DNA of 64,000 bases from Oscillospiraceae bacterium (GTDB taxonomy: Bacteria > Bacillota > Clostridia > Oscillospirales > QAMX01). The stretch lies in assembly GCA_015067705.1 (NCBI GenBank), contig SVLW01000005.1:14666-78665 (forward strand). The letters run 5' to 3'. The position numbers were made by a program, and so were the translations under genes. Numbering within the stretch: the first letter of the stretch is position 1; each line of letters starts with the position of its first letter. The notes under the pieces are model-generated. The model had not been told where the DNA came from. It worked only from the letters and a program-made list of their open reading frames with translations, and did not search any database. Below, in pieces: positions 1,936-21,365 of the stretch.

Positions 1936-2000
1936 GATGGTTCTCCTTTTTCTTTATCGTTTGTCTGCATTGTATCACAGGGGCATGGGGACTGTCAAAT

Positions 2001-2037
2001 AAAGAGAAAACACCGGGAATCGCAGGGATTCCCGGTG
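2001..2037 (-). terminator. intrinsic terminator after trpB
   Basis: On the minus strand, CACCGGGAATC-CCTGC-GATTCCCGGTG (2011-2037) is followed by TTTTCTCTTTATTT. Confidence 0.7.
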
Positions 2038-2053
2038 CAGAAAAGAACAGGAT

Positions 2054-3283
2054 TTACAGCTTGAAGTTCTCGCCGTAGCCGTAGTTTTCGATGACATAGT
2101 CCATGTCCTTGTCGCCGCGGCCGGAGAGATTCACGAGGATGGAGTCGAACTTGTTCTCCTTGGCGGCGCGAATGGCATAGGCCACCGCGTGGGCGCTCTC
2201 GAGCGCCGGAATGATGCCCTCATAGCGGGACAGGGCGTAGAAGGCGTTGACGGCCTCTTCGTCGCTGACGGTATCATAGGTCACGCGGCCGGCGTCCTTG
2301 AGATAGGCATGCTCGGGGCCGGTGGCCGGATAGTCAAGACCGGAAGCCACGGAATAAACGGGATTGGGCTCGCCGTTTTCATCGGCCAGCACATAGCTCT
2401 CAAAGCCATGGAGAATGCCGCGCTTACCGTAGGTCATGGATGCGGCGTGGTCGCCCACCTTGCTGCCGCGGCCCAGAGGCTCAACACCGATGATCTCCAC
2501 AGGATCGGCCAGGAAAGGCACGAACATACCGATGGAGTTGGATCCGCCGCCCACGCAGGCGCAGACCGCATCCGGCATCAGGCCGGTCATCTGCATGAAC
2601 TGCTCACGGGCCTCAATACCCACCACCATCTGGAAGTCACGCACCATCAGCGGGAAAGGATGGGGACCCACAACGGAACCGATGCAGTAAATGGCATCCT
2701 TGTACTCACGGAGATAGGCCTCAAAGGCGGCGTCAACCGCTTCCTTCAGGGTCTTCATGCCGGCGGACACCGGCACGACTCTTGCGCCCAGAAGCTTCAT
2801 ACGGGAGACATTGGGGGCCTGCTTGGCGATATCCACTTCGCCCATGTAAATGTCGCACTCAAGACCGAAATAGGCCGCAGCCGTAGCCAGTGCCACGCCG
2901 TGGGAGCCGGCGCCGGTCTCGGCGATGATCTTCTTCTTGCCCATGAACTTGGCGAGCAAACCCTCGCCCATGCAGTGGTTGATCTTATGAGCGCCGGTGT
3001 GGTTTAAGTCCTCGCGCTTCAGATAAATCTGGGTGGTGCCCAGCATGTTGGACAGCTTTTCGCAGTGATAGACCGGGGTGGGACGACCCTGGAACTCGCG
3101 GCGGATCCGGCGCAGCTCACTGATGAACTGGGCGCTGTGGCAGATCTGACGATAGGCCGCCTCGATCTCACGGAACGCAGCCATCAGTTCTTCCGGCATA
3201 TAGGCGCCGCCATAGGGGCCGAAACGGCCGTCCTTCGACGGGAATTCTTTCAGATAATTGTCAAATGCAGCATATTTATTCAT
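2054..3283 (-). CDS. trpB: tryptophan synthase beta chain (stand-alone TrpB)
   Basis: 409 aa. Contains the PLP-lysine motif [19 protein letters not shown], and the GGGSN loop (VGGGSNSIG). No trpA is adjacent. Confidence 0.85.
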
Positions 3284-3289
3284 GATTTC

Positions 3290-4843: not shown

Positions 4844-4846
4844 ACG

Positions 4847-5362
4847 TTAACCGGTAATTCCTTTTGCAAGTGCCGCAGGCACATCGGGGTTATCGTACAC
4901 CACATCGCTGACGTTGCAGCTGAACTTGGCAAAGCCGGCCCGCAGGGCAATGGTGTGGCCCACGGAGAATTCCACGCCGGAAAGGCGGATGCCATAGGCG
5001 CTGGGCTCGCCGCTGATGCGGGTCACAACCGTGACGGCCTTATAGTTATCCATGGAGGACTGCACCAGCTCGCCCTCCGCATTGGGAGACCACACCACGG
5101 AATCCTCCACTTTGAAATCGATCACTTCACCCATATAGATGTTGCGGTCGGCGTCCACCACGGGAGCGCCCACATAGAGCTTCTGTGCCACAAAGTCCGG
5201 CACTTCCGCAGAATAGAAGGAGAGCTCTACCTCTTCATAGGAGGCGGCGCTGCCGGAGGGCATCATTTGATATGCCGCAAATGCCAGAACCGCCAAAACC
5301 GCCAAAATGATCACGGCGTCCAGCAGCGTAAAACGGCGCTTCTTGTTTGTCTTTTCCATCAT
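4847..5362 (-). CDS. membrane-anchored protein, DUF4330-like
   Basis: 171 aa. N-terminal KKRRFTLLDAVIILAVLAVLAFAA anchor. Lies 3 nt upstream of the ligase-like gene. The family call is from recollection of the N-terminal pattern only. Confidence 0.5.
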   Translation of the reverse strand: MMEKTNKKRRFTLLDAVIILAVLAVLAFAAYQMMPSGSAASYEEVELSFYSAEVPDFVAQKLYVGAPVVDADRNIYMGEVIDFKVEDSVVWSPNAEGELVQSSMDNYKAVTVVTRISGEPSAYGIRLSGVEFSVGHTIALRAGFAKFSCNVSDVVYDNPDVPAALAKGITG

Positions 5363-5377
5363 CAGTTTCCTCCAAGT

Positions 5378-6466
5378 TTATGATTCATAGGCTTTCATGA
5401 TGTTTTCATACATCACTTCTTCCGAAAATTCCCGGCGCACCCGCTCCGCCGCAGCGGCGCCCATCCGGGCCCGCAGGGCGGGATCCTCCGAAAGGCGGCA
5501 GAGCCGATCCGCCATGGCGGCGGCATCGCCGAAGGGCACCAGATACCCGCCGTCTGCCTCTGTAGGCACGATCTCGGGATTGCCGCCCACTTTCGTGATG
5601 ACCACGGGAAGGGAGAGAGACATGGCCTCCGTGATGGCAAAGCTCAGTGCCTCGCTGCGGGAGGTATTGATGCTGACGTCTCCGGCGCAGAGAATCGCGT
5701 CGGTATCCCGGCGGAAGCCGGCCTGCAGGAAGAATCCCTCCATGCCGTACCGCTTGATGGTCTCTCTTGCGCTTTCAAATTCGCTGCCCTGTCCGGCGAT
5801 CAGGAAGCGGGCCTCCGGCAGCCGTTTCTGTACCAGTCGCGCCGTTTCCAGCAGCATGTCCGTACCCTTCACCGGTTCATACCGGGTCAGGGTCGTCACC
5901 ACAAAGGCGTCCTCCGGGATCCCGAATTCCGCCCGGATCTCCCGGCGCAGCCGGGCAGGATCCGCTACCCGGTCGAAAGGCACGCCGTTATGGATCACCC
6001 GCAGACGGTCGGGACGGATGCCGTTTTTCGTCAGCTGATCGATCTGTGCCTCACAGACACAGAGCACCGCGTGATTCCGCGGAGAGAACAGTCGATTGAT
6101 CACCCGCCACTTGGCGTCACAGGCAAAGACCAGATGCGCCGTGGTGATCACTTTCGCAGAAAGGCCCATACGCTTTGCCAGAATGGCAATGCAGTTTTCT
6201 CTGGGGTAATGCGCGTGGATCACGGAGATTTCGCGCGTCCTGGAGATCCCGCGCAGTGTCCGCGCGGCCTTCAGATCCAGGATATGCCGCATGGGCATCT
6301 GCAGGACTTCCGCGCCTGCCGCCGCCGCGTCGCCCACCAGCGGGCCTTCTATTCCATAAACCAGTGTGCAGGTATGACCCGCGGCGATTTGCCGCCGGAT
6401 CAGGGTCAGCACATACTTTTCCGTGCCGCCGCTCCCCGCATAATGGATCAGGTGCAGGATATTCAT
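5378..6466 (-). CDS. glycosyltransferase family 4 (GT-B fold)
   Basis: MNILHLIHYAGSGGTEKY N-terminus and a C-terminal E-x7-E-like region (SEALSFAITEAMSLSLPVV). I moved the start to the ATG at 6466 because GGAGGTG lies 7 nt upstream. The ORF track starts at 6490. Confidence 0.8.
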   Translation of the reverse strand: MNILHLIHYAGSGGTEKYVLTLIRRQIAAGHTCTLVYGIEGPLVGDAAAAGAEVLQMPMRHILDLKAARTLRGISRTREISVIHAHYPRENCIAILAKRMGLSAKVITTAHLVFACDAKWRVINRLFSPRNHAVLCVCEAQIDQLTKNGIRPDRLRVIHNGVPFDRVADPARLRREIRAEFGIPEDAFVVTTLTRYEPVKGTDMLLETARLVQKRLPEARFLIAGQGSEFESARETIKRYGMEGFFLQAGFRRDTDAILCAGDVSINTSRSEALSFAITEAMSLSLPVVITKVGGNPEIVPTEADGGYLVPFGDAAAMADRLCRLSEDPALRARMGAAAAERVRREFSEEVMYENIMKAYES

Positions 6467-6637
6467 TCTTCCCACCTCCACATCAGGCATTCAGTATATC
6501 ACATTTCATTCCCCAAGGAAAGCCTGATATTCATAAATTCAAAAAACATGGATGATTTTCCGTCGTTTCACCCCGATTTTTGTCAAACTTAGAAAAACCG
6601 AACACTATCCAGATATATTATTTTGGTTAAATACGTG

Positions 6638-6666
6638 TTGACATCTCATGGGGAAGTGCGTATAAT
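6638..6666 (+). promoter_or_regulatory. sigma-70-type promoter (TTGACA-17 nt-TATAAT) driving the riboswitch transcript
   Basis: TTGACA at 6638-6643, exactly 17 nt of spacer, then TATAAT at 6661-6666. Confidence 0.7.
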
Positions 6667-6677
6667 ATCAAGTAAGA

Positions 6678-6797
6678 TATGACGCTGAGTGCCATTTTGG
6701 CAGCGGGAGAACCATTTTTGGGGTGTATCCGTCCTTTGGACGGTAGGGTACCTTCTGGCCCAAACCCGACAGCTAATCTCGTAAGCGACGAAGGACA
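6678..6797 (+). promoter_or_regulatory. c-di-AMP riboswitch aptamer (ydaO/kimA class)
   Basis: Reads CGCUGAGUGCCAUUUUGGCAGCGGGAGAACCAUUUUUGGGGUGUAUCC..GGUAGGGUACCUUCUGGCCCAAACCCGACAGCUAAUCUCGUAAGCGACGAAGG. As I recall them, this parallels the B. subtilis ydaO leader (..AGCGGGGGACCCA..GGGGUGAAUCC..GGUAGGG..CCCGUCAGCUAACCUCGUAAGCG) and the Thermoanaerobacter crystallised aptamer (..CACCCGACAGCUAAC..). Confidence 0.85.
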
Positions 6798-6836
6798 CAG
6801 TAAACGGATGGATGAAGCGTTTACTGTTGCTTGCAG

Positions 6837-6864
6837 CGTCCGTCTTACTGCGGGCGGTTTTTTT
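6837..6864 (+). terminator. riboswitch expression-platform terminator
   Basis: Stem CGUCCG (6837-6842) pairs with CGGGCG (6851-6856), followed by a U7 tract at 6858-6864. An overlapping alternative hairpin, CTGCGGG (6848-6854) with CCCGCAG (6869-6875), is followed by TTCTCTTTTTTGTTT. Confidence 0.6.
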
Positions 6865-6953
6865 ATGTCCCGCAGGTTCTCTTTTTTGTTTGCACTTCAT
6901 CTTTTCATGATTCTCCCCTTTCTCTTGGTATCGTCAGTTCGATACCGCAAGAA

Positions 6954-6990
6954 ACCGCCGTACCGAAGAATGGAACGGCGGTATTTTTTT
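6954..6990. terminator. bidirectional hairpin terminator (serves ttcA-like gene and any plus-strand read-through)
   Basis: ACCGCCGT (6954-6961) pairs with ACGGCGGT (6975-6982). ATTTTTTT follows on the plus strand and TTTCTTG on the minus strand. Confidence 0.65.
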
Positions 6991-7015
6991 GCACCTTTGG
7001 GGGAGAATCGAGAGT

Positions 7016-7756
7016 TCAGCGCACTTTTTCCCAACCGGACAGGGGCAGGCGCTGCATGGAGCCGAACATCCGCTCCTGGATGCCGGGGGCCTCCCGGTCC
7101 AGATCCCGCAGGAGTTCCTTCACATACTGGCGCTTGGTGTTGCCGTCGGCGGGACAGGGATTTGTCACAATGGGCAGATCCATGCTTCTGGCACAGCCGC
7201 GCACCAGCTTCTCCGGCGTGTAGAGCAGCGGGCGGATCACCGTCACGTCCTTGCGGTCCAGATAGGTCACCGGCATAAAGCAGGAGATGCGGCCCTCATA
7301 GATCTGGGACATCATGAGCGTCTCCACCGCGTCGTCCCGATTGTGGCCCAGGGCGATCACTCGGCAGTTCCGGGCAACGGCGGCATCATGAATGGCGCCC
7401 CGGCGCATCTTGGCACAGAGCGAGCAGGGATTGGACTCTTTTCGCACCTCAAAGATGATTTCATAAAGCTGCGTCTTTACAATCGTATAAGGTACGTCCA
7501 GTTCTTCGCAGAGGCGTTCGATGGCGTCAAAGCGCATGCCGGGGATACCGGGATCGATGGTGATGGCCTCCACTTCATAGGGAATGGGATAAAAACGCCG
7601 CATGGCGGCAAGCGCCTCTAACAGCACCAGAGAATCCTTGCCGCCGCTGACGCCCACGGCGATCCGGTCGCCGGGCTTTATCATATCATAATCTTCACAG
7701 CAGCGCCGCACATGAGAAAGAACCTTTTGAAGCACAGGGACAATCTCCTTTTCCAA
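7016..7756 (-). CDS. TtcA-family tRNA 2-thiocytidine biosynthesis PP-loop ATPase
   Basis: 246 aa. Contains the PP-loop SGGKDS and the cysteine motifs CSLCAKMRRG and NPCPADG. Confidence 0.85.
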   Translation of the reverse strand: MEKEIVPVLQKVLSHVRRCCEDYDMIKPGDRIAVGVSGGKDSLVLLEALAAMRRFYPIPYEVEAITIDPGIPGMRFDAIERLCEELDVPYTIVKTQLYEIIFEVRKESNPCSLCAKMRRGAIHDAAVARNCRVIALGHNRDDAVETLMMSQIYEGRISCFMPVTYLDRKDVTVIRPLLYTPEKLVRGCARSMDLPIVTNPCPADGNTKRQYVKELLRDLDREAPGIQERMFGSMQRLPLSGWEKVR

Positions 7757-7960
7757 TCCATAGTCTGATCCGAATACCGTTTATTTTACAGGAAAATCCC
7801 CTTTGATTCAATCGTTTTTCCGCACTTTGTAAACATCGCATGAATTTGTGCGTGTCGCCTTGAATCCTTTCAGTTCCTTTGCTATAATAGGGTCGAAAAT
7901 GGAGGATCATCGGCCCCGTCCGATCCCTGATCCAAAAATACATTGAACGAGGGAACAGTT

Positions 7961-9130
7961 ATGGTATTCTGGAAAGTGAAACCCGATCCGTATGAAGAGG
8001 CCCGCACCGGCCGCAGAAGTCTGCCGATTTTTCTGACGATTCTTTTGGCCGGCGCCATCTATTACGGGTTTTCGGAACTGAGTTATCTGCTTTACACCAA
8101 GATCTTTGACGCCGTCCAGTCCGGCATCACCAATTATAAAATTGATTCCTACGCCCCCTTCCTGAATGATTTCAATATCATCGTTCGCTCCGCACTTTTC
8201 CTGCTGATCGGTGTCCTGGGTGTGCTCTATGTCCGTTTCCTGGAGGGACGAAAGCTCTCCACCATGGGCTATCATAAAAAAGGACTGGCCGGCGGCCTCC
8301 TGGGCGGTCTCGGTATCGCCGTGCTCCTGATGGGCAGCATGATCGCCGTGTTCCTGTTTGCGGGCAGCATCCTCTTTGAGGGGGAGCTGGACCTGCACTT
8401 CGGCACAGTACTTCTGGACATTCTGGCGCTTTTGATCCTGGGCTTTTCTTCTGAGCTTTATTTCCGCGGATTCCTGCTGTCCAGTCTGGGCGCCCGCTGC
8501 AAGCCGCTGCTGGCCGTCCTGCTGACGGCGCTGGTCTCTACAGTGGGGCATAGCTTCTACTGGGGCTGGAACATCTTTTCCTTCTATAATAATCTCCTCT
8601 TTGATCTGCTGCTGGGTCTTCTGGCGGTACGCACCTGCAATGCCTGGCTGGCCGGCGCGGTTCGCTCTTTCTGGCTGATCCTCTGCCAGCTGGTCTTTGG
8701 CATTCTTTATTCCGGCCAGGCCTGTTATTATAAGTTGATCCCCAATGTGGTGAACTATGAAAACGGCAGCTGGGTGGGCGCCAGCTGTGTGGACACCGGC
8801 AATGTGTTCACCGCCGTGATGCTCATCGGAATTCTTCTGGTGCTCCTGCTGCCGAAGAAGGATCCCCGGGATGAAGAAGAAGAGCAGAAGCCCTTCTTCC
8901 AGCATGTGCCCGTAGAGAAAAAGACCCCGGATGCCGCGCCTGCCGCCGCACCCGAGAAGATGGTCGCGGAGCCTGTCCTTCGCCGTCCCGAGAGCCTAAA
9001 GAAGGCGCCCGCCCCCGCAGAAGAACCTATGGAATCACCCGCCGAGGAGGACGAGGAAAACTGGGACGAAGAGGAGACCCGCGCCATTGTCCATCCCGAA
9101 TTCAAAAATCCCGAGCAGTACTTGAAATAA
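7961..9130 (+). CDS. CPBP-family intramembrane glutamic endopeptidase (CAAX protease/Abi) with disordered acidic/Pro-rich C-terminal tail
   Basis: Multi-TM protein with SSELYFRGFLL (EExxxR motif) and a later H-containing motif. I moved the start to the ATG at 7961, which has GAGGGA upstream. The track start at 7943 is a TTG. Confidence 0.75.
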   Translation: MVFWKVKPDPYEEARTGRRSLPIFLTILLAGAIYYGFSELSYLLYTKIFDAVQSGITNYKIDSYAPFLNDFNIIVRSALFLLIGVLGVLYVRFLEGRKLSTMGYHKKGLAGGLLGGLGIAVLLMGSMIAVFLFAGSILFEGELDLHFGTVLLDILALLILGFSSELYFRGFLLSSLGARCKPLLAVLLTALVSTVGHSFYWGWNIFSFYNNLLFDLLLGLLAVRTCNAWLAGAVRSFWLILCQLVFGILYSGQACYYKLIPNVVNYENGSWVGASCVDTGNVFTAVMLIGILLVLLLPKKDPRDEEEEQKPFFQHVPVEKKTPDAAPAAAPEKMVAEPVLRRPESLKKAPAPAEEPMESPAEEDEENWDEEETRAIVHPEFKNPEQYLK

Positions 9131-9147
9131 AGAGAAAGGGAGACACT

Positions 9148-9825
9148 ATGAAAAAGTTTTATTTTCTGACCGCAGATTACTATCATCCCGACACGGTCCT
9201 GCGCCCCGGTCTCGAGGCGGCATTCGGTACGGAGAACTGCGTCTATGTCAATGATCCCGCCGAAATTCCCTGGGACACGCTTTCGCAGGACGCGGCATTC
9301 CTGTTGATCGCCAAGATGGACGATTATTCCAGCCAGCTGGGTCATCCCCGCTATGAGGAGCTTTTTGCGCCCGAGGCGGACTGGATGCGTCCGGAGTGGG
9401 CCGCGGCGCTGGAGCGCTATGTGTCCGAGGGCGGCGGCTTTATCGCCCTGCATTCCGGTACGCTGTGGCATGAGGATTCCGACATGGCGCGCCTCACCGG
9501 CGGGTATTTCCTCCGTCATCCGCCGCAGTGCAATGTGCGCGTGGTGCCCACTATAGAGCATCCCATCACGGAGGGCGTGGAACCCTTCACCGCCAATGAC
9601 GAGTACTATATGTGCCGTGTCTACGGCGACCATGTAAAGCCTCTGGCGCTGGCCTGGTCTCCGGAGCCCCAGGGCGAGCCCACGGTGGTGGCCGCCTGGT
9701 GCCGGGAAGTGGCGTGGGGCCGCGTGGCCGTCTTAACGCCCGGCCATACCCTGGACGCCATCCTGAATCCCAACATGACCCGTCTTTTGCAGAATGCTGC
9801 CAAATGGGTCACCAAAACCTGCTGA
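9148..9825 (+). CDS. ThuA-domain protein (class I glutamine amidotransferase-like fold)
   Basis: 225 aa. AAGGGAG RBS. Pattern ...GGGFIALHSG...HPITEGV...DEYY...GRV...TPGH is typical of ThuA. Confidence 0.7.
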   Translation: MKKFYFLTADYYHPDTVLRPGLEAAFGTENCVYVNDPAEIPWDTLSQDAAFLLIAKMDDYSSQLGHPRYEELFAPEADWMRPEWAAALERYVSEGGGFIALHSGTLWHEDSDMARLTGGYFLRHPPQCNVRVVPTIEHPITEGVEPFTANDEYYMCRVYGDHVKPLALAWSPEPQGEPTVVAAWCREVAWGRVAVLTPGHTLDAILNPNMTRLLQNAAKWVTKTC

Positions 9826-9830
9826 TCCTT

Positions 9831-9867
9831 CCCCGTACGGCCCTTTCCCGCCGTACGGGGATTTTTT
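9831..9867 (+). terminator. intrinsic terminator after the ThuA gene
   Basis: CCCCGTACGG (9831-9840) pairs with CCGTACGGGG (9851-9860), followed by ATTTTTT. Confidence 0.75.
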
Positions 9868-10151
9868 CCATCATCCCCAATATTTAGCGGATTCCAGACG
9901 CACAGGATGCGATATCTATGGTATACTACTCATTGTGTGCGAATGCCGCGGTCAAAAAAACCGGCGTTCCGAATGATTGGATCGGGGCGGGTGCGCTTGG
10001 TGAAAGAGCAGAAAAAATTTCCGCTTCCTCTCGCAAATTTGCCCGATTTACCATTGTCAAATCTTTCGGAATTCTGTATAATATACTCGAGTATGTTAAT
10101 ATGGGGAAATGAGGGGATTCATGCCCTCATCCCAAAAGGAGGAATATATCA

Positions 10152-11531
10152 ATGAAGGTCCAGTTTACCGAGACCGTGTTAAGAGATGCCAACCAGTCTC
10201 TTATCGCGACCCGTATGCCGATCGAGAAGTTCCGCGAAATTCTGCCGACTCTTGATAAGGCCGGTTATTATTCCCTGGAGTGCTGGGGCGGCGCTACGTT
10301 TGACTCCTGCCTCCGCTACCTGAACGAAGATCCGTGGGAGCGTCTGCGCACCATCCGTGCCGCCTGCCCCAACACCAAGCTGCAGATGCTGCTGCGTGGT
10401 CAGAATCTTCTGGGCTATAAGCACTATCCGGACGACGTCGTCCGTAAGTTCGTCGATCTGTCCGTCAAGAACGGTATTGACATCATCCGTATCTTCGACG
10501 CTCTGAACGACCTGCGCAACATCCAGGTGGCCGTTGACCAGACCCTCAAGTCCGGTGCAATCGCTTCCGGCGCGATCTCCTACACCACTTCCCCCGTTCA
10601 TACCCTTGAGAACTATGTGAAGCTCGTCAAGGAAATGAAGGAAATGGGCTGCCAGACCATCTGCATCAAGGATATGGCCGGCGTTATCACGCCCAAGGAG
10701 TCCTATGATCTCGTCAGCGCTATCAAGAACGCTCTGCCGGATATGCCCGTGATCCTGCACACCCACTGCACCACCGGTATGGCCTTCATGAGCATCATCA
10801 AGGCTGTTGAGGCCGGCGCAGACATCATCGACACCGCCACCTCCTGCCTGTCCGGCGGTACCTCCCAGCCCGCTACCGAGACCATCTACGAAGCTCTCGA
10901 GCAGATGGGCGTCGAAATGAACCTGAACCGCAAGGTGCTCAAGGAAGTCAACGACTTCTTCAAGCCCATCCGTGACGAGTATCTCGCCTCCGGTCTTCTG
11001 AAGGCCAAGGCCATGGCCACCGATACCGACGCTCTGACCTATAAGGTTCCCGGCGGCATGCTGTCCAACCTGATGGCACAGCTCGAGGCCATGAATGCTC
11101 TGGATCGTCTGGACGAGGCTCTCATCGAGACGCCGAAGGTCCGCGAAGACCTGGGTTATCCTCCCCTGGTCACTCCGCTGAGCCAGATGGTTGGCGTTCA
11201 GGCTGCTACCAACGTGCTGGTTGGCGAGCGCTATAAGAACGTTTCCAAGGAAGTCAAGGCATATCTCCGCGGCGAGTACGGCCGTGCACCCGGTAAGATC
11301 AACGAAGAACTGCAGAAGCAGGTTCTCGGCGACGAGGAACCCGTCACCTGCCGTTACGCCGATCTTCTGGAGCCGGAGTTTGACAAGGTGAAGGCCCAGC
11401 TGGGCGACACCGCCCGCTGCGACGAGGATGTTCTGTCCTACATTGCTTTCCCGCAGGTTGCCGAAAAGTTCTTTGCTGCCCGTAAGGCCAAGGAAGAGAA
11501 CGTCGCCAAGTACACCATCGTCGAGGCATAA
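10152..11531 (+). CDS. oadA: oxaloacetate decarboxylase alpha-type carboxyltransferase subunit (PycB/5S-like, no fused biotin domain)
   Basis: 459 aa. FTETVLRDANQSL...ECWGGATFD...RIFDALND are HMGL-like carboxyltransferase motifs. AGGAGG RBS. Confidence 0.8.
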   Translation: MKVQFTETVLRDANQSLIATRMPIEKFREILPTLDKAGYYSLECWGGATFDSCLRYLNEDPWERLRTIRAACPNTKLQMLLRGQNLLGYKHYPDDVVRKFVDLSVKNGIDIIRIFDALNDLRNIQVAVDQTLKSGAIASGAISYTTSPVHTLENYVKLVKEMKEMGCQTICIKDMAGVITPKESYDLVSAIKNALPDMPVILHTHCTTGMAFMSIIKAVEAGADIIDTATSCLSGGTSQPATETIYEALEQMGVEMNLNRKVLKEVNDFFKPIRDEYLASGLLKAKAMATDTDALTYKVPGGMLSNLMAQLEAMNALDRLDEALIETPKVREDLGYPPLVTPLSQMVGVQAATNVLVGERYKNVSKEVKAYLRGEYGRAPGKINEELQKQVLGDEEPVTCRYADLLEPEFDKVKAQLGDTARCDEDVLSYIAFPQVAEKFFAARKAKEENVAKYTIVEA

Positions 11532-14460: not shown

Positions 14461-14757
14461 ATGAAGGAACTGGACTTCATCCGGGATCAGATTGTCCGCA
14501 TTGCCGATCCCACCCGCATTTATTTATTTGGCTCTTACGCCCGGGGCACCCAGCGCCCGGAAAGCGACTTTGATATCTGCATCGTGGCCCGCACCGAGAA
14601 TAAGCGCCGTCTTTTGACAGAGCTTTATTTTCTGGTGGAGGCGGAACATCCCATTGACTTCCTGCTCTATACGCCGGAGGAATGGGAGGCATGCCTTGCC
14701 GACGAGCTGAGCTTTGCCAGCCAGCTCTCCCGGGAGGGGGTGCTGCTCTATGGCTGA
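14461..14757 (+). CDS. nucleotidyltransferase-domain protein (MNT-like, minimal NTase)
   Basis: 98 aa. LFGSYARG...SDFD is the Pol-beta-type NTase signature. Confidence 0.8.
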   Translation: MKELDFIRDQIVRIADPTRIYLFGSYARGTQRPESDFDICIVARTENKRRLLTELYFLVEAEHPIDFLLYTPEEWEACLADELSFASQLSREGVLLYG

Positions 14758-15136
14758 CAGCCGTCGTTACAACGACTGGTATGACAAGGCGCGGCATGAT
14801 CTGGACGGTGCAAGAGTGCTGGTGGAGCACGGCGGCATCTATGATCTGGCGGCCTTCCACTGCCAGCAGGCCATCGAAAAGGCCCTCAAGGGATGGCTGT
14901 TACAGCACACCGGACGGCTTCACGACGGGCACAGTCTGGTATTCCTCTCCCGCGAGGCCAAGCGCCGGGGCGCCAAAATCGACCGCTATATGCGGGACTG
15001 CGCCTTTGTCAACCAGTTCTACATTGAGACGCGCTATCCCGCAGACATTCCCACAGAAGTTTCCCGGGAGGACGCCGCAGAATGCTGTCAGATCGCCGAG
15101 GACGTGATGGAAGCCCTCATGAAGATCGATGTATAG
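14750..15136 (+). CDS. HEPN-domain protein (partner of the MNT)
   Basis: In-frame ATG at 14750 overlaps the MNT stop (ATGGCTGA). Contains AFHCQQAIEKALK and ETRYP, typical of PF05168-type HEPN. The track start at 14714 is probably too early. Confidence 0.75.
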   Translation: MADSRRYNDWYDKARHDLDGARVLVEHGGIYDLAAFHCQQAIEKALKGWLLQHTGRLHDGHSLVFLSREAKRRGAKIDRYMRDCAFVNQFYIETRYPADIPTEVSREDAAECCQIAEDVMEALMKIDV

Positions 15137-15137
15137 G

Positions 15138-15405
15138 AAAAAGAAAACCCCGCTTAGGCAGTCCCAAACAAGAAACCATAGCCCGCAAAAAGGATCTTTT
15201 CGCCGGACTCGTCGTTATTTTCTCTTGTGTTACACAAAGTAGCACTGCGAGAAAATGCCTCGATTCCGGCGAAAATCTCTCTTTTTTCGGCGCTGACGCG
15301 TTTTGGCCCGTAAGCATCTGCTTACGGGCCAAAATCTATGTTTTCTTATTCGGAACTGCCTCTACAGGGCGCTTGATCGCGCCCTGTAAGCGAGGTTCTT
15401 TTCTT
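15138..15405. repeat. nested imperfect palindrome / cluster of REP-like hairpin units
   Basis: Arm 15156-15179 (AGGCAGTCCCAAACAAGAAACCAT) matches the reverse complement of 15338-15361 at 20 of 24 positions. 15193-15211 pairs with 15260-15277. 15217-15224 (ATTTTCTC) pairs with 15249-15256 (GAGAAAAT). The right arm carries perfect hairpins GGCCCGTAAGCA-TC-TGCTTACGGGCC (15305-15330) and ACAGGGCGC-N6-GCGCCCTGT (15364-15387). Confidence 0.6.
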
Positions 15406-15413
15406 ACCATAGC

Positions 15414-16388
15414 TTACAGCTGCAAGGTCATGCCGGTCTCTTCTGCCATCTGGCGGATGTGGTCGGCACTGAGGGTCACGCGGCTGTCCACCACGCTGAA
15501 ATGCCGCACCAGTGCATCCGGCAAAAGATCCGCAAAGAGAATGTTTGCACCGGACTCGATGGCCAGCAGATTGCCCTCCCGGTCGCCAAGACCGCGGGAG
15601 AGATCGGGGCCGGGCTGCTGTGCTGTGATGAGGATCTCCGGCATCATGAGACGGAGAATGGAGATCTCCCGGAGATTCAGGGTCAGGTCTCCTCTGCCGC
15701 CCTCTGCGGCCAGCGGCGTACCCGTGGCCGGCATATAGGGCACGATGGGCGCCCAGCTAATGTCCAGGTCGCGCATCAGGAGAATATCATCTGCCATCTG
15801 CTCGATGGTATGGCCGGGGAAGTCCACGATATTGCCGGAGGCCAGCTTCATACCGCTCTTCTTCACGGCCTCGATGCTGCGCATCCGCTGGGTGTGGGAC
15901 GTGTTGGGGTTCAGGCGATTGAAGGTGTCGGGATCGGACATCTCAAACTTCAGCACATATTCATCTGCGCCCAGTGCCGCAAATTCCTCATACTGTTCCG
16001 GCTTGAATTCGCCGCAGGCCATGCTGAGGTGGAGGCCCAACTCCTTGATGCCGCGTACGATCTGCAGCACGTTTTCATAGCCATAGCCCAGATCCTCGCC
16101 GCTGATGATGAAGATGCGGGTAAAGCCCATTTCTTTGGCGGTACGAGCCGCAGCCACCACATCCTCCGGTGCCACGCGATAGCGCTTCAGGCAGGTATTG
16201 CCGCCCCGCATGCCGCAGTAAAGGCAGTTATTCTTACATACGTTGCTGTAGCCCAGCATGGCAGAACCGTAGAGCACATTGCGGTCGCGGACATACTGCT
16301 CCCGGGCTTCCTTCCGGATGGTCTGTTCAAATTCTGCGTAGGGAATCGTCAGAAGGTCGATGAGTTCCTGTTTGGTATAGTTTTTCAT
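15414..16388 (-). CDS. radical SAM enzyme, HydE/BioB/PylB-like
   Basis: 324 aa. CKNNCLYCGMRGGN (CxxxCxxC) near residue 52, plus IISGED. Its start overlaps the ATPase stop by 4 nt. Confidence 0.8.
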   Translation of the reverse strand: MKNYTKQELIDLLTIPYAEFEQTIRKEAREQYVRDRNVLYGSAMLGYSNVCKNNCLYCGMRGGNTCLKRYRVAPEDVVAAARTAKEMGFTRIFIISGEDLGYGYENVLQIVRGIKELGLHLSMACGEFKPEQYEEFAALGADEYVLKFEMSDPDTFNRLNPNTSHTQRMRSIEAVKKSGMKLASGNIVDFPGHTIEQMADDILLMRDLDISWAPIVPYMPATGTPLAAEGGRGDLTLNLREISILRLMMPEILITAQQPGPDLSRGLGDREGNLLAIESGANILFADLLPDALVRHFSVVDSRVTLSADHIRQMAEETGMTLQL

Positions 16389-16969
16389 ACGATTTTCCTC
16401 ATTTCCATAACGGAGGCCTGCATCATGCGGGCTTCCTCCGGGTCGTGGGTGACCATGATAACGGTCTTGCCGCGGGTGCGGCGGCGGATGGATGCGGCGA
16501 CAATTTCCCGGGTGCCTTCATCTAAACCCTTAAAGGGCTCATCCATGATGAGAAGCTCACCCTCGGAGAGCAGCGCCCGGGCGATGGCCACGCGGCGCTT
16601 CATGCCGCCGGAATAGGCGCCCACCACTTTCCCGGGATCCTCGGAAAGCCCCAGTTCCCGGAGGCAATCGAGAATGTCCGCATCCGGAACGGTTTTTCCG
16701 GTCACCAGATGAATATTTGCCAGCGCGGAGAACTCTTCACAGAGGCGATCCTCCTGGAACACCACGGAGATGCGCGCCGGGATGCCCGCCACAGTGCCTG
16801 CATCGGGGGATTCAAATCCCAGCAGGATGTTCAGAAGTGTGGTTTTGCCGCAGCCGGAGGGGCCCATGATACAGACCGTCTCCCCTGCGGGAAAAACTGC
16901 GGAAAAGTCCCGCAGCACCTGCTGTTCCCCAAAGCGTTTGGAGAGGGCGTTGATCACAATGTCTTTCAT
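16385..16969 (-). CDS. ABC transporter ATP-binding protein (short, NitT/TauT-type)
   Basis: 194 aa. Walker A GPSGCGKTT, signature YSGGMKRR, Walker B LIMDEP, H-loop VTHD. Confidence 0.85.
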   Translation of the reverse strand: MKDIVINALSKRFGEQQVLRDFSAVFPAGETVCIMGPSGCGKTTLLNILLGFESPDAGTVAGIPARISVVFQEDRLCEEFSALANIHLVTGKTVPDADILDCLRELGLSEDPGKVVGAYSGGMKRRVAIARALLSEGELLIMDEPFKGLDEGTREIVAASIRRRTRGKTVIMVTHDPEEARMMQASVMEMRKIV

Positions 16970-17718
16970 TTTCTCAAAAGCCTCCCAAATCCACCGCGCA
17001 GAAGCGCCAGGAACAGTTTTTCAAAGCCAATGCTCACCGCCACAATGATGACGGTCCAGGCAAAGAGATCCACGGTATTTAAGTACGCCTTGGCGTTATA
17101 GAGCATTTCTCCGATGGAGCCGTCGGGGATGCCGATGATCTCCGCGGCGATACCGGATTTCCAGGCAAGGCCCAGCGCCATGGTGCAGGCAGAGAGCAGG
17201 TACGGGCGGATCTGCGGCAGCCAGAGATAGTGCAGGCGTCTCGTCCACGGCACATGGAACACATCCGCCATCTGGGTCATCTTGGGATCGATACTGCGGA
17301 TGCCCTGCAGAACATTGGTATAGACAATGGGCAGCACCATCAGAAAAGAGATGAAGATGGAGAGATTAGCAGAAGTGAGCCAGATGAGACTGATGACGAT
17401 AAAGGACGCCACCGGCACCGACTTGATGGCCATGAACATGGGCCAGAGCAGGATCTCCAGTGTCTGAAACTTCCCCGACAATACCGCCAGCAGCACGCCC
17501 AGGAATAGACCCAGGGCAAATCCGCCCACAATGCGGATGAAGCTGAACCAGATGGAGGAGAAGAACTGTTCCTCCGTCCAGATGGTGCCCAGGCGCAGCA
17601 GCACGGAAACCGGCGAGGCCAGCAGAACCTTTTGATCCAATATCATTGCTGCCGCCTGCCAGACGGCAAGCGTCAGGAAGACGGCAGCAATTTTTTTCAG
17701 AACAGCTTTATTCTGCAT
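16966..17718 (-). CDS. ABC transporter permease (TauC/SsuC-like)
   Basis: 250 aa, about 6 TM segments, with a binding-protein-dependent transport EAA-like loop. Overlaps the ATPase start by 4 nt. Confidence 0.85.
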   Translation of the reverse strand: MQNKAVLKKIAAVFLTLAVWQAAAMILDQKVLLASPVSVLLRLGTIWTEEQFFSSIWFSFIRIVGGFALGLFLGVLLAVLSGKFQTLEILLWPMFMAIKSVPVASFIVISLIWLTSANLSIFISFLMVLPIVYTNVLQGIRSIDPKMTQMADVFHVPWTRRLHYLWLPQIRPYLLSACTMALGLAWKSGIAAEIIGIPDGSIGEMLYNAKAYLNTVDLFAWTVIIVAVSIGFEKLFLALLRGGFGRLLRK

Positions 17719-18682
17719 AGTAGAAGTCTTCGTCCGGCAGCGTGCCGCCTACGGACTTGGGATTCTGCTCAAAGAGCACGGCCAGATATCCGTCCATGGG
17801 GGCCTTCATATCGTCGCCGGCGATAAAGGTGATGTTGCAGTACGGGATGGCCTTTTCGGCTACAGCGGCCTTGACAATGCCGACCTTTTCAATGATGACG
17901 GAGGCATCAGCGGGGTTTTCATTGACAAAGGTGGTGGATGCCTCGTATTCCTCCAGGAAATCGGCCAGAGCCTGGGGATGTGCCTCGGCGAATTCGCGGC
18001 GCACCAGCAAGACGCCGGTGAGCAGCATGCTGCCGTTATCCAGTGCATCCCACGCCTCGGTCAGATCGATGGCCACGCGCAGGCCCTCTACGGAACCCTG
18101 TGCCACGGTGACAAAGGGCTGGGGCAGCATGGCGACGCCGTCCTCGGTGGAGTTCAGAGTGGCGACCACTTCGGTGGGCTCGCTCTTCCACTCGATGGTC
18201 ACATCGGTGTCAGGATTCACGCCGTTCTCGGCCAGGATATAGCGGAGGGCGTATTCGGGAGTGGAGCCCTTGCCGGTGGCATAGATGGTCTTGCCCTTCA
18301 GGTCGGCAACGGACTGGATGCTCTCGCCCTTTTCCACAATGTAGATCACGCCCAGGGTGTTGATGGCCAGAAGCTGGACAGCGCCCTCGGTGTTATTGTA
18401 AAGAACGGATGCCAGGTTGGCGGGAACTGCCACGATGTCCAGTTCGCCCTGGATCAGCTTCGGGGTCACTTCGTCGGCACTGGCCGCGATGGTGAATTCA
18501 TAATCATTTAAGGACGTACCGGCTTCGTCATCTTCCATGACCTTCACAAGGCCCATGGAGGTGGGGCCCTTCAGGCCGCCGATCCGGATGGTCACGTCTT
18601 CTTCGGTGGTTTCAGCGGCGCAGCCGGCAAATGCCGTCACAAGAAGCGCCAGAGTCAGCAGGATAGCAACTAATTTTTTCAT
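17708..18682 (-). CDS. ABC transporter substrate-binding lipoprotein (NMT1/TauA-like)
   Basis: MKKLVAILLTLALLVTAFAGC lipobox. I moved the start to the ATG at 18682, which has a GGAG RBS. The track start at 18766 would overlap the regulator gene. Confidence 0.8.
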   Translation of the reverse strand: MKKLVAILLTLALLVTAFAGCAAETTEEDVTIRIGGLKGPTSMGLVKVMEDDEAGTSLNDYEFTIAASADEVTPKLIQGELDIVAVPANLASVLYNNTEGAVQLLAINTLGVIYIVEKGESIQSVADLKGKTIYATGKGSTPEYALRYILAENGVNPDTDVTIEWKSEPTEVVATLNSTEDGVAMLPQPFVTVAQGSVEGLRVAIDLTEAWDALDNGSMLLTGVLLVRREFAEAHPQALADFLEEYEASTTFVNENPADASVIIEKVGIVKAAVAEKAIPYCNITFIAGDDMKAPMDGYLAVLFEQNPKSVGGTLPDEDFYYAE

Positions 18683-18716
18683 ATGGGTGATTCTCCTTTC
18701 GTCTGTTGACGATTGT

Positions 18717-18758
18717 AGTATACCCCACTTTTCCGCGATATGACGTTGCTTATGCAAC
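18717..18758 (-). promoter_or_regulatory. predicted activator-dependent promoter: GTTGC-ATAA-GCAAC palindrome plus TATACT -10 box
   Basis: Palindrome at 18745-18758. The -10 box TATACT lies at 18717-18722 (minus strand). There are 29 nt between the palindrome centre and the -10 box, which places the centre at about -41.5. No good -35 hexamer is present. Confidence 0.45.
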
Positions 18759-18762
18759 GGAA

Positions 18763-19440
18763 TCACTTGCCGTTTTCAGCGAATAAATGCGGGATCACAA
18801 AGGAGTTTTTGTGAAAATCGATGATACCCTCTTCCCGCATACGGCTAAGCTCCCGGGACAGGGCGCTGCGGTTCACGCCGAGATAGGTGGCCATGTTCTC
18901 CCGGTCGAAGGGGATGGTGATGCGGCCGCTGCCGGAACGGCTGGCATACTGGGAGAAAAAGGTGATAAGTTTATCCCGGATGGTAATTTTCGAGAGGATC
19001 TGGATCCGGTCATTCATGGCAAGGGTGCGCTGGGCCAGCATGGAGATGAAACGATTTGCAAGCATGGCATCCCGGGGATCGGTGGATGCGCTCTGCCGGT
19101 GCAGGCGATCCACGTGCATCCATAAGACCTCCGACGCCGTGACGCTGCAGATATAGACCGGGGCATCCTGGCCCAGGAAACAGAGGGACTCGCCAAAGGT
19201 GTCTCCCTCCCCTACGTTTGCCATGATCATATGATTGCCGTCGATGTCATCCATATAGACCTGGATGGTGCCGGAGAGCACCATGCCGAAGCAGGGCAGC
19301 GGCGACCCCACCCGATTGAGGAAATCCCCGCGCTCATAGCGCTCCACCTTTGCCGAAAAATATTCCAGCGCATATGCCCGATCCGCCGGGGATAAGCCGG
19401 AAAAAAGCACACTTTTTTCTAAAATCAAATCCTGTTCCAT
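18763..19440 (-). CDS. Crp/Fnr-family transcriptional regulator
   Basis: 225 aa. cNMP-binding-like N-terminal domain (GDTFGE) and a C-terminal HTH (ATYLGVNRSALSRELSRMREEGII). Confidence 0.8.
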   Translation of the reverse strand: MEQDLILEKSVLFSGLSPADRAYALEYFSAKVERYERGDFLNRVGSPLPCFGMVLSGTIQVYMDDIDGNHMIMANVGEGDTFGESLCFLGQDAPVYICSVTASEVLWMHVDRLHRQSASTDPRDAMLANRFISMLAQRTLAMNDRIQILSKITIRDKLITFFSQYASRSGSGRITIPFDRENMATYLGVNRSALSRELSRMREEGIIDFHKNSFVIPHLFAENGK

Positions 19441-19470
19441 ACCCTCACCATTTTAAATTCCGGATACCTG

Positions 19471-19505
19471 ATTATAGCAAATTTCTGTTGCCGCTGCAAC
19501 AGAAA
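19471..19505 (-). promoter_or_regulatory. predicted promoter of the Crp/Fnr gene overlapped by a 24-bp perfect-arm palindrome
   Basis: On the minus strand, TTGCAG (19494-19499), 17 nt of spacer, then TATAAT (19471-19476). The palindrome TTTCTGTTGC-CGCT-GCAACAGAAA at 19482-19505 covers the -35 box. Confidence 0.45.
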
Positions 19506-19581
19506 ATCGGTTTCCATGCCGCATTATCCGTTCTCCCGAAAAAACGTGCGGAAATCGCGCACTTCTTGTATGGTACTCCGA

Positions 19582-19610
19582 TTGAAGCGGGCAGATGGGG
19601 ACGGTATAAT
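19582..19610 (+). promoter_or_regulatory. candidate promoter for the ABC exporter gene
   Basis: TTGAAG (19582-19587), 17 nt of spacer, then TATAAT (19605-19610). Confidence 0.4.
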
Positions 19611-19640
19611 AGAAGCAGAAAAAAGAAATGAGGAGCGACT

Positions 19641-21365
19641 ATGTTAAAACGATTCATTCGGTATTACCGACCCCATCGCAAGCTCTTTGCGCTGGACATG
19701 GGCGCATCGCTAATCGTGGCGCTGATCGGTATTGTCTACCCCATCGTCACCCGCACCATGCTGAACGATCTGATTCCCAATCGCCAGTACAAGATGATCG
19801 TGTATTTCGGCCTGATCCTGCTGGGTATTTATATACTCAGAATGCTTTTGAACTATTTCATCCAGTATCAGGGGCATATGATGGGCGTGCGGATGCAGGC
19901 CGAGATGCGCAGCGATATGTTCCGGCATCTGGAGAAGCTGCCCTACAGCTTCTATGACAATAACGAGACCGGTAAGATCATGTCCCGCATGACAAACGAC
20001 CTGCAGGAAATCAGTGAGCTGGCCCATCACGGCCCGGAAAATCTCCTGATCTCCACCATCACCGTCGTCACGTCCTTTGTCTACTTATCCAGCATCAACT
20101 GGAAGCTGACCCTCATTGTATTTGCCTGTGTGCCCTTCCTGGTGCTGATCTCTCTGGTGATGCGTAAGAAGATGCGCGCCGCCTTTATGAGCAGCCGTAA
20201 GTCCATTGCCGTCATCAATGCTGCTCTCGAGAGCAGCATCTCCGGCATCCGCGTCACCAAGGCATTCACCAATGCCCGCAAGGAATGCGAAAAATTCGAG
20301 GAGGGCAACGGCCAGTTTGTGGCGGCCCGCCGGGACGCCTATAACGCCATGGGTCAGTTCCATTCTTCCACGGCCTTCATTACCGATATTTTCAACGTGG
20401 TGGTGCTGATCGCCGGCGGTCTGTTCCTCTATAACGGCGAGATCGTGTTCGGCGACTATTCCGCCTTCGTGGTGTCCATCGGTCTCTTCATCTCCCCTGT
20501 CATGACCCTCATCAACTTCATGGAGCAGTACCAGAACGGCGTCACCGGTTTTGAGCGTTTCCTGGAGATCCTGGATACCGAACCGGAGCAGGATGCCCCC
20601 GGCGCCACGGATGCCGGCCGACTCTCCGGTCATATTGAATTCCGCGGCGTCACCTATGCCTATGACGGCTCCAAGGACGTGCTGCGGAATGTGAATCTGG
20701 ATATCGAGACCGGCAAGACCTATGCTCTGGTAGGCCCCTCCGGCGGCGGCAAGACCACCATCTGCCACCTGATCCCCCATTTCTATGACATCACCGAGGG
20801 CGAGCTCCTTCTGGACGGCAAGGAAATCCACACCCTCACCGCAGAATCCATCCGGCGGAATATCGGCATCGTCCAGCAGGATATCTATCTCTTCAATGCC
20901 TCCATCCGCGACAACATCCTCTATGGCCGTCTGGACGCCACCGATGAGGAAGTCATCGAGGCGGCGAAGCGCGCCAACATCCACGACTATATCATGTCCC
21001 TCCCCGAGGGATATGACACCCAGATCGGCGAGCGCGGCGTGCGTCTCTCCGGCGGCCAGAAGCAGCGCCTTTCCATCGCCCGGGTATTCCTGAAGAACCC
21101 GCCCATTTTGATCCTGGACGAGGCCACCAGTGCCCTCGACAACACCACGGAGATTATGATCCAGCAGGCCCTGGACGAGCTCTGCAAGGGCAGAACCACG
21201 CTGGTGGTGGCCCATCGTCTGTCCACCATCAAAAATGCCGACGAGATCGCCGTCATCGCCGACGGCCAGATCCTGGAACGCGGCGACCACGAGACCCTGC
21301 TTGCAAAAGACGGGATGTACGCCCATCTCTACCGCCAGCAGTTCCGGGAAACCATCGAAGCATAA
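19641..21365 (+). CDS. ABC exporter, fused permease/ATPase half-transporter (MsbA-like)
   Basis: 574 aa. N-terminal 6-TM domain, then GPSGGGKTT, LSGGQKQRLSIARVF and ILILDEATSALD. Confidence 0.85.
   Translation: MLKRFIRYYRPHRKLFALDMGASLIVALIGIVYPIVTRTMLNDLIPNRQYKMIVYFGLILLGIYILRMLLNYFIQYQGHMMGVRMQAEMRSDMFRHLEKLPYSFYDNNETGKIMSRMTNDLQEISELAHHGPENLLISTITVVTSFVYLSSINWKLTLIVFACVPFLVLISLVMRKKMRAAFMSSRKSIAVINAALESSISGIRVTKAFTNARKECEKFEEGNGQFVAARRDAYNAMGQFHSSTAFITDIFNVVVLIAGGLFLYNGEIVFGDYSAFVVSIGLFISPVMTLINFMEQYQNGVTGFERFLEILDTEPEQDAPGATDAGRLSGHIEFRGVTYAYDGSKDVLRNVNLDIETGKTYALVGPSGGGKTTICHLIPHFYDITEGELLLDGKEIHTLTAESIRRNIGIVQQDIYLFNASIRDNILYGRLDATDEEVIEAAKRANIHDYIMSLPEGYDTQIGERGVRLSGGQKQRLSIARVFLKNPPILILDEATSALDNTTEIMIQQALDELCKGRTTLVVAHRLSTIKNADEIAVIADGQILERGDHETLLAKDGMYAHLYRQQFRETIEA

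Follow-up and report, generated by a model that had tools for sequence, protein, structure and literature searches.

A HydE-like radical SAM enzyme coupled to an ABC importer in gut Clostridia, and its possible part in importer-fed maturation of [FeFe]-hydrogenases

The stretch of DNA analyzed here, called the window throughout, comprises 64,000 nt of contig SVLW01000005.1 (positions 14,666-78,665) of an Oscillospiraceae bacterium (GCA_015067705.1), the genome of which is 2.2 Mb in size, 94% complete and labeled G000 in the comparisons below. It contains a cassette of five consecutive open reading frames (ORFs), all on the minus strand, in which an ATP-binding cassette (ABC) importer is joined to a radical S-adenosylmethionine (SAM) enzyme. 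Following the direction of the genes, the cassette begins with a Crp/Fnr-family regulator (18763..19440, 225 residues). The regulator is followed by a lipoprotein substrate-binding protein (SBP) that belongs to the NitT/TauT (SsuA/TauA/NMT1) class (17708..18682, 324 residues), a permease of the TauC/SsuC/SaoP type (16966..17718, 250 residues), a minimal ABC ATPase (16385..16969, 194 residues) and a HydE-like radical SAM enzyme (15414..16388, 324 residues). The last four genes overlap, by 11 nt between SBP and permease and by 4 nt at both the permease/ATPase and the ATPase/radical SAM junctions. The radical SAM protein contains the motifs CKNNCLYCGMRGGN and IISGED. The first-pass annotation of this DNA had reported the same five genes, overlaps and motifs, and the ORF listing agrees with it exactly. 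The reading frame of the SBP spans 17708-18766, and the ATG at 18682 was chosen as its start. This start is backed by a ribosome-binding site, AAAGGAGA, located 9 nt 5' of it, and the N-terminus of the protein is a lipoprotein signal peptide with a lipobox (MKKLVAILLTLALLVTAFAGC).

The product of the last gene is most similar to HydE. It matches the HydE model TIGR03956 with 169.4 bits (169.7 in the genome scan), compared to a curated cut-off of 254.6 and to the 293-596 bits scored by the true HydE proteins of relatives. The other NCBIfam scores are 119.6 for PylB (TIGR03910, cut-off 348.2), 91.7 for BioB (TIGR00433, 225), 69.2 for HmdB (320.9) and 45.3 for ThiH (380). The closest relative by far is the HydE of Thermotoga maritima (E = 1.5e-51, compared to 6e-20 for PylB and 1e-16 for BioB), and the identity to HydE is about 30-40%. 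The AlphaFold2 model of the protein (mean pLDDT confidence score 94.2) was compared to known structures with Foldseek. All of the top 10 matches are T. maritima HydE (TM-score 0.88-0.91, E about 1e-30), with BioB and PylB ranking behind it (E about 1e-21). The CX3CX2C motif at C51/C55/C58 is invariant in the family, and the protein has no auxiliary-cluster cysteines. The placement of the enzyme near HydE, BioB or PylB in the first-pass annotation was thus sound, HydE being the best match, followed by PylB and then by BioB.

The protein and its homologs nevertheless differ from HydE in a systematic way. In phylogenetic trees the paralog family forms a separate clade with 98-100% SH-like support and a long stem, sister to the HydE of T. 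maritima and of the Oscillospirales. When the family was compared column by column with 30 true HydE sequences, about 35 positions were found to be fixed differently. In the numbering of T. maritima HydE, M224 is replaced by W212 in 99% of the family and M291 by F285 in 98%. In HydE these two methionines keep the Fe(I)(CO)2(CN)S fragments in place while they dimerize (PMC11826987; PMC10114646). Further replacements are R155 to E143, R279 to N273, H160 to F, T268 to Q and T269 to Q, and V105, L157, T134, S136 and T162 of HydE are likewise replaced. The position of R159 is occupied by K147, so that a basic residue is kept there. The 30 true HydE proteins retain the T. maritima residues at these cavity positions in 97-100% of cases. 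The predicted cavity of the paralog is therefore more aromatic and less cationic than that of HydE, and its substrate or product must then differ from those of HydE. The protein has not been filed as HydE because several defining features of HydE were looked for and not found. It is best described as a HydE-like enzyme that is no bona fide HydE and that belongs to a new subfamily with diagnostic residues. RefSeq calls the homologs at 54-73% identity no more than "radical SAM protein" or, as with P0245, P0256 and P0272, "biotin synthase BioB". The BioB label is very likely wrong, because the BioB profile yields only 91.7 bits against its cut-off of 225.

The importer components fit the NitT/TauT type, which combines a class F SBP fold with one BPD_transp_1 permease and one ABC ATPase. 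The SBP matches the Pfam families NMT1, NMT1_2 and Phosphonate-bd, and scores 73.9 against the cut-off of 163.5 of the NCBIfam SsuA_fam model. Its AlphaFold2 model has a pLDDT of 92.9, and the nearest folds are 3hn0, TauA, PqqT and SsuA. No other part of the cassette is as well conserved: its homologs share 63-80% identity where the radical SAM protein shows 54-70%. Cys282 is invariant, and the loops GGLKGPTSMG and TGKGSTPEY are conserved. The permease, recognized by BPD_transp_1 (PF00528), has SaoP as its best NCBIfam match (80.7, cut-off 295), followed by SsuC (57.3, cut-off 347) and TauC (39.5, cut-off 342). Its C178 is conserved at only 78%, and the permease alignment contains nothing striking in the way of conserved Cys, His or Met gating residues. 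The ATPase, recognized by ABC_tran (PF00005), scores 109.5 against 395 for the SsuB-type model and 90.4 against 360 for SaoA. It possesses the Walker A motif, the signature motif and the H-loop, and lacks a C-terminal regulatory domain. Its small size is a family trait, as most relatives have 193-203 residues and one has 216. None of the three components reaches an equivalog-level cut-off for SsuA/C/B or TauA/C/B. At the level of class, the Pfam and NCBIfam results agree with the earlier description of an NMT1/TauA-like lipoprotein, a TauC/SsuC-like permease and an unusually short ATPase.

The SBP fold class also includes ThiY, Thi5 and MqnA-like proteins. Together with the weak profile similarity of the enzyme and the RefSeq name, this would suit a cofactor enzyme resembling BioB, ThiH, PylB or MqnE (biotin, thiamin, pyrrolysine or menaquinone-type) that works with a precursor importer. 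Such a role is hardly credible, however. The BioB, PylB and ThiH scores given above are far under their cut-offs, and the genome encodes a separate, true ThiH (511 bits). The latter protein, on contig C18, also accounts for an apparent match to HydG, which was rejected; the 'TGA inside' that gene is its stop codon. An Rfam E-value scan of positions 14500-20000 gave no credible riboswitch, THI-box or other. Clustering of about 900 neighboring ORFs from the loci described below did not reveal sulfur-assimilation, biotin, thiamin or pyrrolysine genes recurring near the cassette. The first-pass annotation had seen neither biotin, thiamin or pyrrolysine genes nearby nor a riboswitch, and the profile scores, the clustering and the Rfam scan bear this out.

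The distribution of the cassette was examined by a tblastn census, with contexts taken from public assemblies and 80 metagenome loci. The family is rare: among 300 genomes of the class that were sampled, 2 have it. The loci were collapsed to 52 lineages at 85% identity, 30 of which have enough flanking sequence to judge the context. The order SBP-permease-short ATPase-radical SAM recurs across distant Clostridia with unrelated flanks, and the arrangement is, for that reason, judged to be far from chance. Among the 30 assessable lineages the SBP is kept in 17 and the whole ABC set in 14. The radical SAM gene stands alone in 12 lineages. In six it ends a cassette of the type TM1266-SBP-permease-ATPase-radical SAM, where TM1266 denotes a family of "iron-only hydrogenase system putative regulator" proteins. 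The window's own type, Crp-ABC-radical SAM, was found in three lineages, the same type extended by a gene for HydF in another three, and SBP-radical SAM-HydF, which has neither permease nor ATPase, in three more. The rest are ABC-radical SAM (two lineages) and radical SAM-HydF-TM1266 (one lineage). A search started from homologs of the SBP found the full cassette in all three contexts sampled. The ABC-linked state is probably ancestral, with repeated loss, because it is scattered across the whole family tree. All-against-all clustering of the neighbors gave no recurrent partners beyond the SBP, permease, ATPase, TM1266, HydF and Crp proteins. The first-pass annotation had taken the genes for an import-and-modify cassette, and the recurrence of the gene order in distant Clostridia supports that idea.

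Two of the recurrent partners connect the cassette to [FeFe]-hydrogenases. The HydF neighbors found in other lineages are bona fide (cut-off 325.55; scores of 530.6 and 516.1 bits), and the neighbors of the TM1266 family, for which the cut-off is 60.8, reach 105.9 and 80.7 bits. The paralog has HydF or TM1266 at its side in 22 of the 52 lineages, in several separate clades, and the genes overlap or nearly abut. In Qiania dongpingensis, a cultured species with a complete genome (CP060634), the order is Crp-SBP-permease-ATPase-radical SAM-HydF, and Evtepia gabavorous has SBP-radical SAM-HydF with a divergent Crp gene. HydG was found in the flanks of the paralog in none of the 52 lineages, unlike canonical hydE of related genomes, which lies within a few kb of hydG in 23 of 31 cases.

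The genome of the window, G000, encodes three proteins with an [FeFe]-hydrogenase H-domain. Two of them belong to the group A hydrogenases, the A6 model giving 897.8 bits and TIGR02512 giving 537 and 461 bits, and all of the canonical H-cluster motifs are present in one. These hydrogenases therefore need a [2Fe] subcluster. In the 593-residue group A6 hydrogenase on contig C27 (99688-101466, outside the window), the first H-cluster motif, canonically TSCCPGW, is TSCSPGW. The second hydrogenase, on contig C20 (36462-38216), has the canonical first motif. A scan of the genome revealed no true HydE, HydF or HydG above cut-off. The first-pass annotation had pointed to the absence of hydrogenase, hydF and hydG genes nearby, implying that hydrogenases play no part. 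It was right in that hydF and hydG are missing, here from the entire genome. The implied lack of any relation to hydrogenases does not stand in view of the three H-domain proteins and the HydF/TM1266 adjacency elsewhere. For the same reasons the context is that of [FeFe]-hydrogenase cofactor maturation, in place of the salvage of an orphan small molecule that had been suggested.

The lack of maturases is not peculiar to G000. Five carrier genomes (G000, G303, G305, G101 and G301; Qiania and Evtepia were not included) were searched, and all five have [FeFe]-hydrogenase genes and lack HydG, HydF and a true HydE. A comparison set made up of 80 genomes from the order of G000, together with G101 and G301, was searched with TIGR03956 for HydE and with PF02906 for the H-domain. 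PF02906 was present in all 81 relatives tested. HydE and HydF occur together in 37 genomes, 31 of which also have HydG, and 43 genomes have none of the three. All five paralog carriers fall into the latter, maturase-less group. A true HydE and the paralog never share a genome (0 of 37), and the paralog is present in 5 of the 43 maturase-less genomes (hypergeometric p about 0.04). Incomplete genomes were considered as the cause of the missing maturases and rejected, as all four genomes of the genus and more than 20 genomes of the order that are at least 95% complete lack them. For roughly half of this order of gut Clostridia, having hydrogenases without the maturases seems to be the norm. One genome without HydE or HydG (G324) has a 106-residue frame (C20:59274-59552) that matches only the C-terminal quarter of HydF with 143.5 bits. 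This fragment may be what is left of a maturase operon that has been lost.

These data bear on the explanation that the enzyme is simply the organism's own HydE, which performs the canonical job on the product of HydG, and that the transporter is unrelated or supplies iron or cysteine. HydE is indeed the best match, and HydF adjoins the gene in some lineages. Nevertheless, this explanation is very unlikely. The score of 169.4 bits is short of 254.6, the proteins form a separate clade on a long stem, and M224, M291, R155, H160 and R279, conserved at about 100% in the 30 true HydE, are replaced. Moreover, HydG is absent from the five carrier genomes, and the linkage to the ABC genes is conserved and involves translational coupling. 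The profile search, the structural comparison with HydE and the neighborhood census that the first-pass annotation had recommended thus yielded a HydE-like fold, a score under the cut-off and a conserved ABC linkage. The combination that it had named as fatal to its proposal, a true HydE with hydF and hydG in the genome and an unconserved linkage, is not what these genomes contain.

The regulator at the head of the cassette consists of a cNMP_binding domain (PF00027, 44.9 bits) and an HTH_Crp_2 domain (PF13545, 44 bits), and has no FNR-type Cys cluster. Its orthologs (43-70% identity) stand alongside the cassette in nine loci (L019, L157, L090, L069, L091, L095, L096, L103 and L160) and are divergently oriented in two more (L123 and L131). 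A palindrome, CGTTGC-ATAA-GCAACG (18744..18759, minus strand), is the predicted operator in the spacer between the regulator and SBP genes. It lies 22 nt 5' of TATACT (18717-18722, minus strand), the predicted -10 box of the SBP promoter, and its center is ~41 nt (about -41.5) before the inferred transcription start. This placement is the one expected of a class II site through which a Crp/Fnr-type protein would activate the SBP promoter. In 10 loci, which represent three architectures, the motif GTTGC-N4-GCAAC is found 5' of the SBP gene. It has exactly two copies in the 2.2-Mb genome, both within the cassette locus. The second copy, GTTGC-AGCG-GCAAC (19487..19500, minus strand, predicted), precedes the regulator gene, 10 nt 5' of the extended -10 box TGCTATAAT, and is a probable autoregulation site. 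No operator was found near the hydrogenase genes of the genome, even when one mismatch was allowed. Because both copies are local and none is located by the hydrogenase genes, the regulator itself appears to be local and is probably autoregulated. The first-pass annotation had called it dedicated, which is consistent with its orthologs accompanying the cassette and with an operator confined to this locus.

The TM1266-headed cassettes have instead a conserved leader, CCUGACGCAUUUGGG-UACGY-CCCGGAUGGAAAGGUGACGG, 5' of the TM1266 gene, followed by an intrinsic terminator. The leader was seen at about 5296-5405 of locus L021, and there are equivalents in L067, L077, L079, L083, L085, L087, L102, L158 and L159, the hairpin stem being longer in L102 and L158. 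It has no Rfam match, and nhmmer and regular-expression searches gave no significant copy in the genome of the window.

According to a further explanation, a harmful or signaling compound, such as a cyanide- or thiocyanate-like inhibitor of hydrogenases, is imported and destroyed or transformed in order to protect or tune the hydrogenase. A regulator that is dedicated and local, and whose operator has only two copies, would fit an inducible response. The SBP class includes binders of small anions, the closest PDB sequence match of the SBP was deposited as a nitrate transport protein, and there is a structure of T. maritima HydE with bound thiocyanate (3cix). However, it is unusual for a toxin to be imported only to be destroyed, the data show no inducibility by such a compound, and the adjacency of HydF speaks for assembly rather than protection. 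We therefore consider this explanation quite improbable.

Taken together, the cassette is likely to belong functionally to the [FeFe]-hydrogenase system. As for what it does there, our tentative preference, at a probability of roughly 0.45, is for a branch of H-cluster maturation or salvage that is fed by the importer and does not depend on HydG. Its observed basis is the gene order and overlaps, the HydE fold, the separate clade, the remodeled cavity, the synteny, the HydF/TM1266 adjacency, the absence of HydE, HydF and HydG, and the operator. In this branch the Crp/Fnr-family regulator would bind GTTGC-N4-GCAAC at about -41.5 and would presumably activate the SBP promoter, and would also bind its own promoter. 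The lipoprotein SBP would take up an extracellular ligand of low molecular weight, which is probably anionic, and the TauC-like permease and the minimal 194-residue ATPase would carry it inward. The translationally coupled HydE paralog would cleave SAM, and the 5'-deoxyadenosyl radical would act on the imported molecule, the likely chemistry being a HydE-type attack at sulfur. The product would be a building block of the [2Fe] subcluster, handed to HydF where HydF adjoins the cassette. In G000, which has no HydF, it might be passed to the apo-hydrogenases directly or via a putative other scaffold.

A more specific version is that the cassette naturally salvages a preformed organometallic precursor of the [2Fe] subcluster from gut neighbors that encode HydEFG, and that the HydE paralog unpacks or activates it. 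The precursor would be an iron-carbonyl-cyanide-thiolate species or its stable carrier form. We rate this version as quite unlikely. By analogy, the proposal of an importer-fed branch is favored by the PqqT protein, a binder of the cofactor pyrroloquinoline quinone (PQQ), which has the same SBP fold class, and by a second HydG-less arrangement of HydE, HydF and an ABC importer in the same order of bacteria, described below.

Several points weigh against an importer-fed maturation branch. Its support is genomic in kind, and its ligand is hypothetical. The methionines that hold Fe(I) and the cavity arginines are replaced, and the enzyme therefore cannot simply repeat the chemistry of HydE on the product of HydG. 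That product decays quickly in water (PMC10114646) and is therefore an unlikely substrate for import. G000 and the other four searched carriers lack HydF as an acceptor. The phyletic exclusivity is statistically weak (p about 0.04-0.09) and is no more than suggestive, and the occurrence of the paralog in only 5 of the 43 maturase-less hydrogenase genomes means that it is not the general answer to how hydrogenases manage without maturases. Finally, the 12 of 30 lineages with a solo radical SAM gene could point to a function that is independent of import.

The main rival is salvage of organosulfur compounds or nutrients with no relation to hydrogenases, where the HydE-like enzyme breaks a C-S bond and frees cysteine or sulfur. 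The imported compound would be a sulfur-containing amino-acid derivative or a sulfonate-like compound, and HydF and TM1266 would be relics of an origin in a hyd operon. The importer belongs to the NitT/TauT sulfonate/taurine class, and T. maritima HydE acts on a thiazolidine sulfur in vitro (PMC10114646). The paralog has kept the basic residue K147 at the R159 position and lost the residues of the Fe-fragment cavity. It is common for the gene to be solo or to sit in an ABC-only cassette that lacks HydF and TM1266, and G000 itself lacks HydF. On the other hand, an adjacency to HydF or TM1266 that occurs in several separate clades, with overlapping or nearly abutting genes, is not easily retained as a relic. 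At least six lineages have a cassette headed by TM1266, and no sulfur-assimilation gene recurs beside it. On balance, we consider organosulfur salvage unlikely.

No published description of the cassette was found in the literature, and its comparison to known systems shows both common and distinct features. The enzyme shares with HydE (TIGR03956; T. maritima structures 3IIZ and 7O1O) the (beta-alpha)8 radical SAM fold and the CX3CX2C and SAM motifs, and in several lineages its gene is positioned directly upstream of hydF. Unlike that of HydE, its gene is never beside hydG, is found in genomes that lack HydG and, as a rule, shows translational coupling to an ABC importer. The transporter resembles the NitT/TauT importers (SsuABC, TauABC, ThiXYZ and PqqT; Transporter Classification 3.A.1.17) in its SBP fold class, its single TauC/SsuC-like permease and its single ATPase. 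It differs from them because it misses all of the equivalog cut-offs, the ATPase is cut to 194 residues and the SBP has an invariant Cys. Furthermore, the last gene of the operon encodes a HydE-like enzyme, and the operon is governed by a Crp- or TM1266-type regulator, not by sulfur starvation or a THI-box.

The selenocysteine-assisted organometallic (SAO) system of Clostridioides difficile has been proposed to import organometallic compounds by an ABC transporter with an NMT1-like lipoprotein, SaoX (bioRxiv 10.1101/2022.07.06.499078). The cassette is similar to it in having an ABC system with an NMT1-like lipoprotein, a permease for which SaoP is the best NCBIfam match and an ATPase that also matches SaoA. 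However, the cassette has no selenocysteine or CC/CU motifs, and its SBP has a single invariant Cys. The MerB-like SaoL and SaoB, SaoC, SaoE and SaoT are absent from the window, and SAO for its part lacks a radical SAM enzyme. Identity with SAO was therefore rejected, given also the SaoP and SaoA scores of 80.7 against 295 and 90.4 against 360.

The second HydE-HydF-importer arrangement, unrelated to the first, was found in HydG-less genomes at three loci, L072 (genome G312, 1818-10297), L073 (G374, 1693-8525) and L076 (G333). Its genes encode a BtuC/FecCD-like permease, an ABC ATPase, HydE (>500 bits), a NifH-like protein (308 bits), two NifD/E/K-like proteins, an IsdE/Peripla_BP_2 lipoprotein and HydF. 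The ABC ATPase of L073 bears a C-terminal TM1266-like domain, which suggests that the TM1266 proteins may be regulatory domains that have become detached from importers of this kind. These clusters resemble the cassette in belonging to the same order, in the joining of an ABC importer and in the involvement of a TM1266-type domain. They differ in using a bona fide HydE, a chelate-type (type II) importer of the BtuCDF/Fhu kind and a nitrogenase-like reductase, none of which is present in the window. Artificial maturation in vivo, in which cells without HydEFG obtain active hydrogenase from an externally supplied synthetic [2Fe] complex (PMC6243476), shares its functional logic with the proposed importer-fed route. 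In contrast to that route, it is a laboratory procedure that uses a synthetic compound and no known transporter.

The gap past the stop codon of the radical SAM gene (15138-15405) consists of nested palindromes, for example TTTTGGCCCGTAAGCAGATGCTTACGGGCCAAAA, and probably holds the terminator of the operon. On its other side, at 14461-15136, there is a nucleotidyltransferase/HEPN pair, a toxin-antitoxin-like MNT-HEPN module, that is convergent to the operon. This pair, a metallo-beta-lactamase (MBL)-fold gene and oxaloacetate-decarboxylase genes are syntenic in loci L019, L020 and L157.

At a minimum, the analysis corrects the label 'biotin synthase BioB' and delimits a new subfamily that has its own diagnostic residues and a regulator paired with an operator. 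The activation of [FeFe]-hydrogenases without HydE, HydF and HydG is an acknowledged open question that concerns archaea, several protists and some heterologous hosts (PMC11216029). A HydE paralog that is wired to an uptake system, and often to HydF, in genomes without HydG provides a concrete experimental handle, and there are cultured carriers, namely Qiania dongpingensis, Evtepia gabavorous and Lientehia hominis. If the imported compound enters H-cluster assembly, the accepted picture of maturation by three enzymes would change, a new cross-feeding dependency in the hydrogen metabolism of the gut would come to light, and a simpler way of activating hydrogenases in engineered hosts might become available. 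If the salvage of a precursor is true, some HydG-less Clostridia would be 'H-cluster auxotrophs', and the cassette would be the first molecular handle on maturation without the canonical maturases.

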